Shown here piece after piece: positions 19,505 to 24,731 of a stretch of DNA of 64,000 bases (position 1 is the first letter of the stretch; each line of letters begins with the position of its first letter). Location of the stretch: contig JBFXDA010000022.1 of the NCBI GenBank assembly GCA_050181585.1, forward strand, positions 3,844-67,843, written 5' to 3'. A model generated the notes under the pieces. That model was given only the letters and a program-made list of their open reading frames with translations, did not search any database and had not been told where the DNA came from. The position numbers and the translations under genes were made by a program. Source of the stretch: Reyranellaceae bacterium (GTDB taxonomy: Bacteria > Pseudomonadota > Alphaproteobacteria > Reyranellales > JAQSWP01).

Positions 19505-20809
19505 TTAGTGCACCGTCTCGCCGTGCAGGTTGATGTCGAGGCCTTCGACCTCGACGTCTTCCGGCACGCGCAGGCCGATGATCACGTCGATCACCTTCAG
19601 GATGACGAAGGTGGCGACCGCGCACCACGCGATGGTGGCGACGCAGCCGATGAGCTGGGTCAGAACCTGGCCGGCATTGCCTTCGATCAGGCCCGACTTG
19701 CCTTCGCCGCCGATCGCCTCGACCGCGAACACGCCGGTCAGGATGGCGCCGACGAAACCGCCGATGCCGTGCACGCCGAAGGCGTCCAGCGAGTCGTCGT
19801 AGCCCAGCATCCGCTTGAGGCTGGTGGCGCCCCAGAAGCAGATAACGCCGGCGATGGCGCCCATGATCAGCGCGCCGACCGGATCGACGAAGCCGGCGGC
19901 CGGGGTGATGCACACCAGCCCGGCGACGGCGCCGGAGATGATGCCCAGCACCGTCGGCTTGCCCTGCACCACCCACTCCGCGAACATCCAGGCCAGCGCC
20001 GCCGCGGCGGTGCAGATCTGGGTGACCAGCATGGCCATGGCCGCGGTGCCGTTGGCCGCCGCCGCCGAACCGGCGTTGAAGCCGAACCAGCCCACCCACA
20101 GCAGCGAGGCGCCGATCAGGCTGTAGACCAGGTTGTGGCCGGCCATGTTGTCGGTGCCGTAGCCCTTGCGCTTGCCCAGCACCAGGGCCGCCACCAGGCC
20201 GGCGACGCCGGCATTGATGTGCACCACGGTGCCGCCGGCGAAGTCGAGCACGCCGTCCTCGCCCAGGAAGCCGCCGCCCCACACCCAGTGGGCGATGGGG
20301 GCGTAGACCACGATGATCCACGCCGTCATGAACACCAGCATGGCCGAGAACTTCATGCGCTCGGCGAAGGCGCCGGCGATCAGCGCCGGGGTGATGATGG
20401 CGAAGGTCATCTGGAACACGGCGAACAGCGATTCGGGAATGGTCCCGAACAGCGTGTCGGACGCGATGCCCGACAGGAACAGCTTGGACAGGCCGCCGAC
20501 ATAGGGCGTGCCCTCGGCGAAGGCCAGGCTGTAGCCGATCACCATCCACACGATCGAGCCCAGCGCGCAAACCGCGAAACTCTGCATGACGGTGGACAGC
20601 ACGTTCTTCTTGCGCACCATGCCGCCGTAGAACAGCGCCAGGCCGGGGATGGTCATCATCAGCACCAGGGCGGTGGAGGTGAGCATCCAGGCGGTGTCGC
20701 CGCTGTCGAGCTTGGGTGTGTCCTGCGCCAGCGCGCTGCCGGCGGCGCCCAGCGTTACCAGGGCGGCGGCGAGACCGGCGCCCAGCTTGTGACCGAACTT
20801 ATTCAACAT
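19505..20809 (-). CDS. amtB: Ammonium transporter AmtB, first copy
   Basis: ATG at 20809 after GGAGGGGG; signal peptide; DFAGGTVVH and DDSLDAFGVHG motifs. Confidence 0.95.
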   Translation of the reverse strand: MLNKFGHKLGAGLAAALVTLGAAGSALAQDTPKLDSGDTAWMLTSTALVLMMTIPGLALFYGGMVRKKNVLSTVMQSFAVCALGSIVWMVIGYSLAFAEGTPYVGGLSKLFLSGIASDTLFGTIPESLFAVFQMTFAIITPALIAGAFAERMKFSAMLVFMTAWIIVVYAPIAHWVWGGGFLGEDGVLDFAGGTVVHINAGVAGLVAALVLGKRKGYGTDNMAGHNLVYSLIGASLLWVGWFGFNAGSAAAANGTAAMAMLVTQICTAAAALAWMFAEWVVQGKPTVLGIISGAVAGLVCITPAAGFVDPVGALIMGAIAGVICFWGATSLKRMLGYDDSLDAFGVHGIGGFVGAILTGVFAVEAIGGEGKSGLIEGNAGQVLTQLIGCVATIAWCAVATFVILKVIDVIIGLRVPEDVEVEGLDINLHGETVH

Positions 20810-20819
20810 CGTCCCCCTC

Positions 20820-21245
<426 letters not shown>

Positions 21246-21451: not shown

Positions 21452-22705
21452 ATGGATTCGGTCCAGCAACGCTACGACGTGGTGATCGCCGGGGCCGGCA
21501 TGGTCGGGGCCATGCTGGCGGTGGCGCTGGGCGCGGCCGGGCTGCGGGTGGCGGTGGTCGACCGCATGACGGTCGAGGCCATGGCCGATCCGCGCTTCGA
21601 CGGCCGCACCTCCGCCATCGCCTTCGGCTCGCGCCGCGCCCTGGAGCGGCTGGGCCTGTGGCAAGCGCTTGCCGCCAATGCCTGCCCGATCCGCACCATT
21701 CGCGTGTCGGACGGGCCCTCGCCGCTGTTTCTCGAATTCGATCCGCGCGATCTGCAGCGCGATGCGCGCCAGCCGGCCGAGCCTTTCGGCCATATCGTCG
21801 AGAACCGTTTCCTGCGCCGGGCCATGCATGGGCGCCTGCAGGAACTGCCCAATGTCGTGCGGCTGATGCCCGACTCCATCGTCGAAGCCGCCCGCGAGCC
21901 CGGTGCGGCGACGCTGCGCCTGGAAAGCGGCGCGACGCTGAACGCCGCCGTGCTGGTGGTGGCGGAAGGCCGCCAGTCGGCCCTGCGCGAGAAGCTCGGC
22001 ATCGGCCTGCGCCGCTTCGACTATCGCCAGACGGCGATCGTCTGCACGGTGCGGCACGAACGGCCGCATCACGACGCCGCGCAGGAACGCTTCCTGCCCG
22101 CCGGTCCCTTCGCCATGCTGCCGATGACCGACGACGAGCAGGGGCAGCATCGCTCCTCCATCGTGTGGACCGAGCGGCAGGAATTGGCGCCGCTGATGCT
22201 CAAGCTCGACGCCGAGGCGTTCGGCCTGGAGATCAACCGCCGCTTCGGCGACTATCTCGGCAAGGTGACGCCGGTGGGCGGCCGCTGGTCGTTTCCGCTG
22301 TCGCTGCAGCTTGCCGAGCGCTACACCGCCGAGCGCGCGGTGCTGGTGGGCGACGCCGCGCACGGCATCCATCCCATCGCCGGCCAGGGCCTCAATCTGG
22401 GCCTGCGCGATGCGGCGGCCCTGGCGCAGGTGCTGGTCGATGCGGCGCGCCTGGGCCTCGATATCGGCGCCGCCGACATTCTCTCGTCCTACGCGCGCTG
22501 GCGCCGGTTCGACATCCTCACCCTGGCCGCCGTCACCGACGGGCTGAACCGGCTGTTCGCCACCGACGCGCCGCCGCTGCGGCTGGCGCGCGATCTGGGG
22601 CTGGGCCTGGTCAACCGCGCCACGCCGCTGAAGCGCGTCTTCATGCGCCATGCCATGGGCGCGCTGGGCGACCTGCCGCGGCTGATCCGCGGCGAAGCGT
22701 TGTGA
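21452..22705 (+). CDS. ubiH: Ubiquinone biosynthesis flavin hydroxylase (UbiH/UbiL/Coq6 family)
   Basis: DVVIAGAGMVG FAD motif, DGRTSAI, GDAAHGIHPIAGQGLNLGLRD. Could be the alphaproteobacterial UbiL. Confidence 0.88.
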   Translation: MDSVQQRYDVVIAGAGMVGAMLAVALGAAGLRVAVVDRMTVEAMADPRFDGRTSAIAFGSRRALERLGLWQALAANACPIRTIRVSDGPSPLFLEFDPRDLQRDARQPAEPFGHIVENRFLRRAMHGRLQELPNVVRLMPDSIVEAAREPGAATLRLESGATLNAAVLVVAEGRQSALREKLGIGLRRFDYRQTAIVCTVRHERPHHDAAQERFLPAGPFAMLPMTDDEQGQHRSSIVWTERQELAPLMLKLDAEAFGLEINRRFGDYLGKVTPVGGRWSFPLSLQLAERYTAERAVLVGDAAHGIHPIAGQGLNLGLRDAAALAQVLVDAARLGLDIGAADILSSYARWRRFDILTLAAVTDGLNRLFATDAPPLRLARDLGLGLVNRATPLKRVFMRHAMGALGDLPRLIRGEAL

Positions 22706-22775
22706 GGCGTTGTGGCTTTGCCGCCACGAGGGGCGGCAATCGTCGGGCTGGCGTCGGGCCGGCCGGCATCCGCGA

Positions 22776-22805
22776 TTGACGGCGGGCCCCCGCGTGAGGC
22801 ATTTC
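22776..22805 (+). promoter_or_regulatory. Putative sigma-70 promoter placing +1 at the leader ATG
   Basis: TTGACG at 22776-22781, weak -10 (GCATTT) 17 bp later, ATG at 22812 with no SD sequence. Confidence 0.5.
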
Positions 22806-22811
22806 ACGCGC

Positions 22812-22889
22812 ATGTCTCGGCACCCCACCTTTTGGCACATCGCCACCCACCGCGCGTGGGCCGTTGGCTATGGGCGTGGCTGTGCGTGA
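22812..22889 (+). CDS. Putative attenuator leader peptide MSRHPTFWHIATHRAWAVGYGRGCA
   Basis: 25-codon ORF with 3 His, 2 Trp, Phe and Tyr; ends 18 nt before a terminator and contains a segment complementary to the terminator 5' arm. Confidence 0.55.
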   Translation: MSRHPTFWHIATHRAWAVGYGRGCA

Positions 22890-22907
22890 AGCATAGATAG
22901 CGTTCCC

Positions 22908-22949
22908 AACCAAAGGCCCCGCCGGCAACGGACGGGGCCTTTGGTTTTT
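22908..22949 (+). terminator. Intrinsic terminator / attenuator hairpin
   Basis: AACCAAAGGCCCCGCCG-GCAA-CGGACGGGGCCTTTGG followed by TTTTT. Confidence 0.9.
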
Positions 22950-22990
22950 CGGGCGTTCTCCGTTTGCCGATCGGGCCGGACGGAGATGTC

Positions 22991-23455
22991 ATGCCGGTCC
23001 AATATCTTCTCTGCCGCGCCGCCCTGCCGCTGCGAGCAATGCGGCTGCTGCCCGGGCGCACCCTGTCCTGGCCGTTGCGCGTGCAGGACGACGGCGGCTT
23101 GCGCAGCCGCGGCCTGCGCTTGCGCCTGCATGGCGTGGGCCAGGCGCAGAACGCGCCGCTGCTGGCGGCGCGCCTGGCGCTTCTGCTGGCCGCGGCACCC
23201 TGTCGCTGGCGCATCCTGGCGGTCGACCGCGACGGCACCCTGGCCGTGCTGGTGCGCGTCGGCGGCGGCAACGTCGCCGAGCGGTTGCTGCGCGAGGGGC
23301 TGGTCGACCTGCGCGGCGGCGGCACGCAGCGTCTGCGCGGCGCGCAGGAGCAGGCGCGCCGGGAGCGGCGCGGGCTGTGGCGCTTCGCCGAGGCGCCGGC
23401 GATGCGGGCCGCGCCGTCGCCGGGCGCGCCGCCGTTTCCCTGGTGGCAGGGCTAA
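22991..23455 (+). CDS. Degenerate thermonuclease (SNase)-fold protein
   Basis: GGAG RBS; LRLHGV, DRDGTLAV, NVAERLLREGL and AQEQARRERRGLW resemble SNase motifs, but DGDT, DAPE and YGR catalytic residues are missing. Confidence 0.6.
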   Translation: MPVQYLLCRAALPLRAMRLLPGRTLSWPLRVQDDGGLRSRGLRLRLHGVGQAQNAPLLAARLALLLAAAPCRWRILAVDRDGTLAVLVRVGGGNVAERLLREGLVDLRGGGTQRLRGAQEQARRERRGLWRFAEAPAMRAAPSPGAPPFPWWQG

Positions 23456-23585
23456 AGGGAACGGGAGCCGGCCCGGCCGCGTTCGAATCGGACCGAATTG
23501 CGGCGGGGGCGGTCTTGAACCCGCCCTATTCGCCGCCTAAGTCGCTTGGCCATCAGAAGCGATTTTCCGCCCCGTTGGAGGACCC

Positions 23586-24731
23586 ATGCTCCGCCTGATC
23601 CGCAGCTTTCCGCTCGTCCTCGTGCTGGCCCTGGCCGCGCCGCTCGCCGCGCCTGCCGTGGCCCAGAACCTGGCACAGAACCGCACCCCGGTGCTGGAGG
23701 CGCAGCCGGCGCCGTCGCTGGCGCCGCTGGTCAAGACCGTCACGCCGGCCGTGGTGAACATTTCCGTCGTCTCCACCATGCGGGTCGAGGAGAACCCGCT
23801 CTATCGCGATCCCTTCTTCCGCCGCTTCTTCAACGTGCCCGACCAGCCGCAGGCGCAGCAGCGCCAAGCCGCCGGTTCGGGCGTCATCGTCGATGCCGGG
23901 CGCGGCTACGTCATGACCAACAACCACGTCGTGGCCCGCGCCGACAAGATCGCGGTGACCTTGAAGGACGGGCGCACGCTGAACGCCAAGCTGATCGGCA
24001 CCGATCCCGGCACCGACATCGCCGTGCTGCAGATCCCGGCCGAGAACCTGACGGCGCTGCCGCTGGGCGATTCGGGCCAGCTCGAGGTCGGCGACTACGT
24101 GGTGGCGATCGGCAATCCGTTCGGGCTGGGCCAGACCGTGACCAGCGGCATCGTCTCCGCACTGGGCCGCTCGGGCCTGCGCATCGAGGGCTACGAGGAC
24201 TTCATCCAGACCGACGCCTCGATCAATCCCGGCAATTCGGGCGGCGCGCTGGTCGACCTGCGCGGCCGGCTGGTCGGCATCAACACCGCCATCATCGCGC
24301 CGTCGGGCGGCAATGTCGGCATCGGCTTCGCCGTGCCCATAAACATGGCGCGCGCGGTGTTCGACCAGCTGGTCGAATACGGCAAGGTGCAGCGCGGCCG
24401 CGTCGGCGTGCAGGTGCAGGACGTCACGCCCGAGATCGCCGCCGCCATCGGCATGAAGCAGCCGACCGGCGCGCTGATCGCCCGCGTCGAGCCCAATTCG
24501 CCCGCCGCCAAGGCCGGGCTGAAGCAGGGCGACGTGGTGCTGGAAGTCAACGGCACGACGGTGCGCAACTCGTCCGACCTGCGCAACCGCATCGGCCTGG
24601 TGCGCATCGGCGAGAAGGTCGACGTCACCTATCGCCGCAACGAGGACGAGCGCAGCACCTCGATGCGGGTCGCCGACATGCCGCTGCCGCAGCGCGAGCA
24701 ACCGCAGCGCCAGGGCCTGCAGCAGCGCTGA
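23586..24731 (+). CDS. DegP/DegQ (HtrA) periplasmic serine protease with a single PDZ domain
   Basis: Signal peptide; triad TNNHVV, TDIA, INPGNSGG; C-terminal PDZ (SPAAKAGLKQGDVV). Confidence 0.92.
   Translation: MLRLIRSFPLVLVLALAAPLAAPAVAQNLAQNRTPVLEAQPAPSLAPLVKTVTPAVVNISVVSTMRVEENPLYRDPFFRRFFNVPDQPQAQQRQAAGSGVIVDAGRGYVMTNNHVVARADKIAVTLKDGRTLNAKLIGTDPGTDIAVLQIPAENLTALPLGDSGQLEVGDYVVAIGNPFGLGQTVTSGIVSALGRSGLRIEGYEDFIQTDASINPGNSGGALVDLRGRLVGINTAIIAPSGGNVGIGFAVPINMARAVFDQLVEYGKVQRGRVGVQVQDVTPEIAAAIGMKQPTGALIARVEPNSPAAKAGLKQGDVVLEVNGTTVRNSSDLRNRIGLVRIGEKVDVTYRRNEDERSTSMRVADMPLPQREQPQRQGLQQR

Follow-up and report, generated by a model that had tools for sequence, protein, structure and literature searches.

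A putative leaderless leader-peptide attenuator conserved upstream of a predicted nuclease-fold gene in a Reyranellaceae bacterium and its relatives

The window analyzed here is a stretch of 64,000 nucleotides from a Reyranellaceae bacterium (assembly GCA_050181585.1, contig JBFXDA010000022.1, positions 3,844–67,843). It contains an intergenic region between a gene for a UbiH-type flavin monooxygenase (PF01494), whose stop codon is at 22705, and a gene for a 154-amino-acid protein, here called X, that starts at 22991. This region is probably a ribosome-dependent leader-peptide transcription attenuator, carried on a leaderless transcript, that controls X. A preliminary description made from the sequence alone had seen the layout of the trp and his attenuators in it. 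Comparative evidence backs that layout: conservation in 9/9 copies, linkage to X, a Shine-Dalgarno-led start in one copy (G004b), and relatives of the threonine/lysine (Thr/Lys) type.

When 41 related genomes were searched at the DNA level, four genomes of the same genus had the intergenic region in full, and a second genus of the family had parts of it. Nine modules were compared: the window copy (genome G000), one each from G001, G002 and G003, two from G004 (G004a and G004b), two from G006 (G006a and G006b), and one from a metagenome locus (L057). Conservation upstream of homologs, named in the preliminary description as a way to check its proposal, was found – the whole module is present in all nine copies, each directly upstream of an X homolog, one of which is internally deleted. 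The parts follow one another in the order upstream motif, TTGAC, a spacer of 16–17 nt, GCATnn, ATG, a reading frame of 24–29 codons, a spacer of ~20–50 nt, a terminator, and a second hairpin in which the Shine-Dalgarno site of the following gene, and often its start codon too, is buried. Because this whole arrangement recurs in eight copies besides the window's, the features of the leader region exceed what chance would give.

All features of the window copy are on the plus strand. The putative -35 hexamer TTGACG (22776–22781) is TTGAC in 9/9 modules and CTTGAC in the leaders of thrS genes in the same genus. The -10-like hexamer GCATTT (22799–22804), 17 nt past it, is GCATnn after a spacer of 16–17 nt in 9/9 modules. 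TTGACG lies 36 nt upstream of the ATG at 22812, and no purine-rich Shine-Dalgarno sequence precedes this ATG, as the preliminary description had read the sequence. The ATG opens the predicted leader reading frame, 25 codons and a TGA (22812–22889), with the translation MSRHPTFWHIATHRAWAVGYGRGCA. In the modules with this kind of start the ATG follows the -10-like hexamer by 7 nt (five modules), 8 nt (two modules) or 10 nt (G003). Such -35/-10-like geometry puts the predicted +1 at or beside the A of the ATG in 7–8 of the nine modules, and the leader transcript is probably leaderless. The second G004 module, G004b, replaces the promoter-adjacent start with a 22-nt leader that has AAGGAGG 5 nt before the ATG. 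This Shine-Dalgarno-led start appears to be the best single sign that the leader is translated.

Other features of the frame can be set beside it. Frame 1 is open in 9/9 modules, while stop codons interrupt frame 2 in two of them and frame 3 in six. The spacings from aligned ATG to aligned stop, 75, 78, 81, 81 and 81 nt, vary in steps of 3 nt. A comparison of G002 with G004a over the codons that precede segment 1 (the first of the pairing segments described below) gives four synonymous and two non-synonymous changes and one 3-nt insertion or deletion. The seven ortholog peptides share M-(Q/S/L)-(K/R/S), then a His, F-T-x-I...W, and then T-H-R; the paralog peptides, MHMLISINPIEKLS... and MNESQSDVNIDSG..., share with the orthologs just the part that is also conserved as RNA. 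The unusual T-ending codons pointed out in the preliminary description are indeed rare: TCT, TTT, GTT, CGT and TGT each have a relative synonymous codon usage of 0.09 or less against the 32 long frames of the window. The leader frame has an adaptation index of 0.36, which ranks within the bottom 3% of 452 windows of 25 codons drawn from those 32 frames.

The frame is followed by an intrinsic terminator (22908–22949). It has the GCAA loop described earlier: a hairpin of 17 pairs with one bulged A (22908–22946) is made of segment 3 (22908–22924), the loop (22925–28) and segment 4 (22929–22946), and the T tract ends at 22949. A simple scan reported just the inner part of this hairpin, on the minus strand. 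Across the nine modules 94% of the cells in the terminator alignment are paired, 10 of the 17 pairs are invariant, and the core is identical in every copy. The minimum free energy fold of 22812–22955 has -70.1 kcal/mol (z -2.9), and 0 of 200 shuffles were as stable.

Segment 2 (22849–22868), the antiterminator strand, lies in the 3’ half of the reading frame and is complementary to nearly all of the 5’ arm of the terminator (22909–22925). The pairing of GGGCCGTTGG (22858–22867) with CCAAAGGCCC (22910–22919), claimed at 9 of 10 positions, is there as claimed and is part of a longer complementarity. The duplex 22850–22867:22910–22925 has 15 pairs and -26.4 kcal/mol; dinucleotide shuffles have a mean of -18.3 kcal/mol, and 0.7% of 300 were as good. 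Over the nine modules, the best duplex between frame and 5’ arm has -20.4 to -28.4 kcal/mol, and it beats 300 dinucleotide shuffles in eight of them (p ≤ 0.04). In those eight modules the duplex ends 15–19 nt before the stop codon. When the modules are aligned, 88.9% of the 135 antiterminator cells are paired, compared to 26–56% with the partner strand slid. Two pairs are compensatory – in G006b, TTGG:CCAA has become TCGG:CCGA – and the covariation score was reached by 5 of 500 column shuffles.

A small hairpin of segments 1 and 2, CCCAC-CGCGC-GTGGG (22846–22860), would mask the first part of the antiterminator strand. A masking pairing had been proposed before, and the minimum free energy fold contains it, CCCAC (22846–22850) with GTGGG (22856–22860). 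Across the nine modules 84% of its cells are paired. One pair is compensatory (A-U to G-C in two sequences), and a hairpin occurs at the same position in the canonical relatives described below.

These parts suggest the following mechanism. Transcription would start at or beside the A of the ATG at 22812, and a ribosome would translate the 25-codon frame. If the ribosome reached the stop codon, or never loaded, segment 2 would be covered or held in hairpin 1:2 and hairpin 3:4 would form. With 3:4 formed, transcription would terminate at the T tract and release an RNA of ~135–140 nt. A ribosome lagging at about codons 8–11 (W-H-I-A) would melt 1:2 and set segment 2 free; the free segment would pair with the 5’ arm of the terminator, and the polymerase would continue into X. 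In this scheme the transcription start, the translation of the leader, the stall site and the signal are inferred; the sequence features, their conservation, the alternative pairings and the linkage to X are observed. The public sequencing runs listed as holding this DNA, five in number, are all DNA runs.

The position of the stall can be estimated from geometry. The footprint of a ribosome generally reaches some 15 nt past the first nucleotide of the P-site codon. On this assumption, the P-site codons at which a ribosome would cover hairpin 1:2 and spare the core of the antiterminator are 9–11 (H-I-A) in the window and 10–13 in the orthologs. A Trp codon is inside this computed stall window in 6/7 orthologs, and in the window copy the Trp codon, W8, is one codon upstream of it. 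The stall site at the F-W-H codons suggested in the preliminary description agrees with this geometry, W8 being next to codons 9–11. In all, a single Trp codon is in or beside the stall window in 7/7 orthologs, accompanied by codons for Phe, His, Ile, Val and Thr; neither paralog has one, and the residues at this place in the paralogs are quite different.

The signal can be named only tentatively. It might be how much charged tRNA is available for Trp and for the neighboring Phe, His, Ile and Thr codons, or it might be a general slowing of translation, the latter being a candidate because rare codons abound in the leader; an effect of the nascent chain could also be involved. Sensing of cysteine was considered and rejected, as the Cys codons near the C-terminus are absent from both G006 copies.

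A second layer of control may be present. Segment 5 (22950–22970) is complementary to the loop and 3’ arm of the terminator and holds the anti-Shine-Dalgarno sequence TCTCC (22957–22961). In the predicted fold, hairpin 5:6 (22952–22995) buries the Shine-Dalgarno sequence GGAG (22982–22985) and the ATG (22991) of X. The X Shine-Dalgarno sequence is paired in the terminator-state fold of 8/9 modules, with stem sequences that vary between modules. When polymerase leaked through with the terminator folded, the Shine-Dalgarno sequence and AUG of X would thus stay inside 5:6. When 2:3 formed, the freed segment 4 would take segment 5, and the ribosome-binding site of X would open. The 4:5 duplex has -24.5 kcal/mol in the window (p 0.057) and -19.5 to -29 kcal/mol in 16 leaders; 11 of these leaders reach a p of 0.05 or lower, and 15 reach 0.083 or lower. 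Matching changes occur between the two strands, for example in a thrS leader, where GGTTCGGGG is opposite CCCGACC. A relay from the formation of 2:3 to the opening of the ribosome-binding site is plausible on these grounds.

A covariance model built from the nine modules (R1) was run over 138 genomes of the order. The eight genome-borne copies score 87–157 bits, and L057 scores 156.8 bits in a separate search of loci. Other full-length matches across the order, with ~30–42 bits, came from the sister family and from two genomes that belong to the same genus as the window. Thirteen of these weaker matches were inspected, twelve from the order-wide search with 34–42 bits and one more in L078, among them two thrS leaders in the window's genus (G002 and G005). 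All thirteen are leader-peptide attenuators with the layout seen in the window. Seven loci have a leader rich in Thr and Lys (MMRFATKTTTTKTTTF...) before asd, two have further leaders before a second asd, two have Lys-rich leaders before dapA, and in two (G002 and G005) a leader that contains five Thr codons precedes a thrS paralog truncated at its N-terminus. The leaders were identified as R1 matches and the genes by NCBIfam equivalog models. The loci in the sister family are L065:1501–1680, L066–L068, L070, L071 and L075; further loci are L064:955–1125, L077:1501–1675, L074 and L076; those in the window's genus are L069:1460–1640 (minus strand) and L078.

These canonical relatives resemble the window copy part by part. 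They are probably leaderless or nearly so, with the ATG a few nt past a good -10, and the thrS leaders of the window's genus have CTTGAC-N17-AGATAT-N7-ATG. Their small hairpin is at the same position in the model (ACCACC/GGTGG, CCGCC/GGCGG). Their antiterminators, at -16 to -25 kcal/mol, are no better than the window's. The terminator core is nearly identical and has the same bulged A, and a hairpin covers the Shine-Dalgarno site. Rfam 15 matches none of these relatives.

In the genome of the window itself (G000), the regions upstream of asd and dapA contain no leader of this kind, and the genome lacks the short paralog of thrS. Elsewhere in G000, R1 finds only matches of the hairpin type. The 1804 sites in this genome with a hairpin and TTTT were passed through a combined filter (short open reading frame, promoter-like -35, antiterminator, downstream gene). 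Besides one weak and spurious match, the window site was the only one to pass. A hairpin of the attenuator-terminator type also occurs on contig C13 of G000, in L023:700–1060 (~73700–74060 of the contig), where an AT-rich stretch abuts the apparent 3’ end of a tRNA gene (...GGCTCCACCA) and the hairpin follows this end. That locus may be the edge of an integrated element.

The order-wide matches allow a broader proposal, which is speculative and on balance rather unlikely. The six segments (1:2, 3:4 and 5:6, changing to 2:3 and 4:5) could be a reusable cassette in which one stall both antiterminates and unmasks a ribosome-binding site. Placed before asd, dapA and thrS in some genomes, the cassette would have been rewired without codon runs to genes of the nuclease fold, under a signal other than a single amino acid (translation stress or a ligand of the nascent chain), with each paralog having a signal of its own.

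The protein encoded by the X gene (22991–23455, plus strand) has no match in Pfam or NCBIfam. An AlphaFold2 model of it (mean pLDDT 76) has a fold like that of staphylococcal nuclease: Foldseek matched it to staphylococcal nuclease and to SND1 domains with E ~3e-6, with a TM score of 0.6–0.7 on the target. As the preliminary description had stated, the downstream gene is not one for amino acid biosynthesis. A database of 5.8 billion sequences contains six X-like proteins at E ≤ 0.001, including the window's own, and one of them has a source name of the thermonuclease family. Strong X homologs are confined to the window's family, and the module is directly upstream of each.

From the T tract to the ATG of X is 41 nt. 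Hairpin 5:6 fills this gap, so transcription of X must pass the terminator. The possibility that X has a promoter of its own, within the frame or the spacer, was examined by eye and rejected: no -35/-10 pair has a workable spacing, and a conserved CATAG box is missing in G006b. As no other terminator lies between ubiH and the hairpin, the hairpin also ends the transcripts of ubiH.

In G004 and G006 the module and X are duplicated as a unit. The tandem copies, each with its nuclease-like gene, are at L021:2030–4232 (G004) and L022:3040–4180, minus strand (G006). The first halves of the leader peptides in the tandem copies are unrelated, and a cytochrome b561 gene (PF01292) is between the two G004 copies. 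At the ubiH locus of G005 (87% complete) there is neither module nor X, and cytochrome b561 comes after ubiH (L082). At that of G007 (73% complete; L083), just the upstream motif and a relic of the X C-terminus, FPWWQG, are left. The sequences indicate that the X gene is decaying in some relatives.

A number of observations weigh against an attenuator that senses translation of the leader. The promoter is not strong by sequence – a sigma-70 consensus scan of 22300–23700 returned 0 promoters, and GCATTT is a weak match to the -10 consensus. Conservation of the peptide is incomplete: G004a and L057 differ by one synonymous and four non-synonymous changes, and in the 3’ half of the frame the differences between orthologs mostly alter the amino acid. 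Nowhere in the leader do codons of a single amino acid form a run, and X has no link to amino acid metabolism. In G003 (L002:1320–1508, minus strand) the leader is intact, at 141 bits, while X is cut to 62 codons that keep both termini and lose the nuclease domain. Because G003 keeps its leader despite the truncated X, the leader may serve something besides X, such as the downstream protease gene or a role in trans.

Others of these observations concern the RNA. Hairpin 1:2 has five pairs, and the frame region overall folds no better than shuffles (z +1.0 to -1.9). In G006a, shuffles do as well as the actual antiterminator duplex (p 0.72). Antiterminator covariation is thin: 7 of the 15 pairs are invariant, two are compensatory, and the sequences are close kin. 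Since nearly half of the pairs never vary and the sequences are related, this covariation is modest support; its power is low because the metagenome scan for X added a single locus. The stability of the terminator (~-33 kcal/mol) greatly exceeds that of the antiterminator. When segment 1 is masked, as it would be by a stalled ribosome, the fold with 2:3 forced minus that with 3:4 forced is +11.1 kcal/mol in the window, the largest of the nine modules. This difference is -4.8 to +9.3 kcal/mol in the other eight modules and -5.1 to +15.9 kcal/mol in the canonical leaders; the state energies of the modules are comparable to those of canonical leaders, which counts in favor of attenuation. For the second layer, the read-through-state fold frees the Shine-Dalgarno sequence of X at least partly in 4/9 modules, and the window is not among the four. 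In the comparison with the canonical leaders, the shared hairpin alone gives 20–36 bits, most of their R1 score. For this reason a shared layout is claimed here, and common descent of the upstream parts is not established.

Among other explanations, the one that survives best is that the region is a stand-alone small gene. Its product would be the ~135-nt RNA – as message for a 25-amino-acid protein, as a base-pairing small RNA, or as both – with an ordinary terminator, X expressed by leak-through, and the pairings as ancestral leftovers. This has some appeal and is still unlikely. Promoter, frame and terminator make a complete unit, the terminator is much the stabler of the two structures, and the hydrophobic stretch F-T-x-I...W recurs in the orthologs. 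The unit is kept in G003, where X is without its nuclease domain. Attenuator RNAs and their peptides are reported to be able to act in trans in S. meliloti (PMC6614838, PMC7298713). Against a stand-alone gene, the unit never occurs without an X homolog or a remnant of one directly downstream, it is duplicated with X, and G005 and G007 have neither the module nor X. After the terminator there is no space for a promoter of X. The peptides of G004b and G006a are without the N-terminal sequence of the orthologs, while the RNA stretch that pairs with the terminator is common to all. The codon usage of the leader is also very poor.

Less probable still, and with a small chance of being right, is an RNA switch independent of translation, in which the open frame would be incidental and the balance of 1:2 and 3:4 against 2:3 would be tipped by temperature or by a protein, small RNA or metabolite. 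In support of it, conservation is strongest at the level of RNA: the encoded residues differ among copies, but segment 2 and the terminator hardly vary. DNA of this G+C content often has open frames of 25 codons, and frame 2 is open in 7/9 copies too. The position of the frame argues the other way: the ATG is at a fixed distance from the promoter in 8/9 copies and is Shine-Dalgarno-led in the ninth, and the stop codon is 15–19 nt past segment 2 in 8/9 copies, where a terminating ribosome would cover segment 2. Relatives of the same layout have unmistakable runs of Thr or Lys codons before their cognate genes, the 5’ half of the module is not conserved as RNA, and no Rfam match reaches threshold.

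It is highly improbable that the hairpin is merely the terminator of ubiH, with the frame, the promoter-like hexamers and the complementarity arising by chance (the alternative that the preliminary description had itself named). In its favor, there is no other terminator from the ubiH stop (22705) to the hairpin, and hairpins of a similar kind end other genes of this genome and its relatives, for instance beside the tRNA-like 3’ end on contig C13. Against it, the hairpin is 200 nt past the ubiH stop and all parts are conserved in 9/9 copies. The duplicated copies contradict it, since they follow other genes, cytochrome b561 (G004) and the first of the two X copies (G006).

The Rfam result rests on a scan of 22300–23700 (E ≤ 10), which gave nine weak matches, none at threshold, the best with 23.4 bits against a gathering score of 50. 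These sub-threshold matches (ohsC, mir-4667, livK, isrJ, suhB/mmgR and others) were rejected, as all of them rest on the hairpin.

Upstream of the putative promoter is a further conserved element, TTGTGGCTTTGCCGCCACG followed by GCAATCG (22710–22742). It is present in all nine modules, in degenerate form in the G006 copies, with the pattern TGTG-N10-CACG and then GCAAT. Across the modules this motif (TTGTGGC..GCCACG, then GCAATCG) is 35–65 nt before the -35, and in the window copy an insertion of 10–11 nt separates the two. The composite pattern occurs once in the G000 genome. The motif may be an operator for some regulator.

Several features flank the region. Upstream of ubiH, 19505–21158 on the minus strand has two frames that are, by eye, candidates for an AmtB-like ammonium transporter and a PII protein (GlnB/GlnK-like). 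Downstream, between X and a gene for a protease of the DegP/HtrA type (23586–24731), there is a 9-pair hairpin with TTTTCC at 23539–23568. This hairpin may be a weak terminator, with a bearing on whether the protease is co-transcribed with X.

The module can be compared with several known systems. The classical leader attenuators of enterobacteria are those of trp, his, thr, phe, leu and ilv. Like these, the module has a short promoter-proximal frame, overlapping 1:2, 2:3 and 3:4 pairings, an intrinsic terminator, and a stop codon placed such that a terminating ribosome covers segment 2. Unlike them, the window copy has no codon run and a target of the nuclease fold, is probably leaderless, has the extra segments 5 and 6, and belongs to no Rfam leader family. 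A codon run and a cognate target are two defining features of amino acid attenuators, and because neither is found here the module is set apart from them.

Some leader peptides sense drugs or metabolites through the nascent chain, including the erm and cat leaders, TnaC and SpeFL, and B. subtilis yxjB (PMC6851288) is reportedly grouped with them. They share with the module, as it is proposed to work, a short frame on which a stalled ribosome remodels the downstream RNA and targets other than amino acid biosynthesis, and some control both transcription and translation. They differ in that the paralog peptides of the window-type modules are unrelated and the target is neither a resistance nor a catabolic gene.

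An alphaproteobacterial precedent is the trpL attenuator of S. meliloti, which gives rise to the RNA rnTrpL and the peptide peTrpL (PMC6614838, PMC7298713, PMC7968998). The preliminary description had invoked this precedent, and PMC6614838 confirms a leaderless RNA and a 14-amino-acid peptide. Like trpL, the module would be a leaderless attenuator of an alphaproteobacterium that releases a short RNA which also codes for a peptide, with stem-loops set by a pausing ribosome. The frame of trpL has 14 amino acids, senses Trp and precedes trpE(G), whereas here the frame has 25–27 codons with just one positioned Trp codon, and the target gene is unrelated.

The Thr/Lys relatives before asd, dapA and thrS are similar to the module in the order of parts, the ATG near the -10, the position of 1:2, the terminator core with its bulged A, segments 4:5, and the hairpin over the Shine-Dalgarno site. 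They have runs of Thr and/or Lys codons and cognate genes, neither of which is found in the window, and they are, as judged by eye, without the upstream TGTG...CACG...GCAAT motif. In a literature search by titles and the starts of abstracts, with subscription journals outside its reach, neither the module nor any attenuator ahead of a nuclease-like gene was found described, and the same held for Thr/Lys leaders that precede asd or dapA in Alphaproteobacteria.

Attenuation is usually seen as a device of amino acid operons, recognized by its run of cognate codons. The conserved module described here has neither such a run nor an amino acid gene, and its presence beside canonical relatives in sister genomes offers a view of how a switch of this kind is re-used for a new target. 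The matches in the order indicate a lineage-wide family of leaderless attenuators beyond those in Rfam 15, and members of this family may couple the control of termination to the unmasking of a ribosome-binding site. If the signal is translation stress or a ligand of the nascent chain, the module would be a compact and portable sensor, and it would give a first hint of when the nuclease-like protein is needed.

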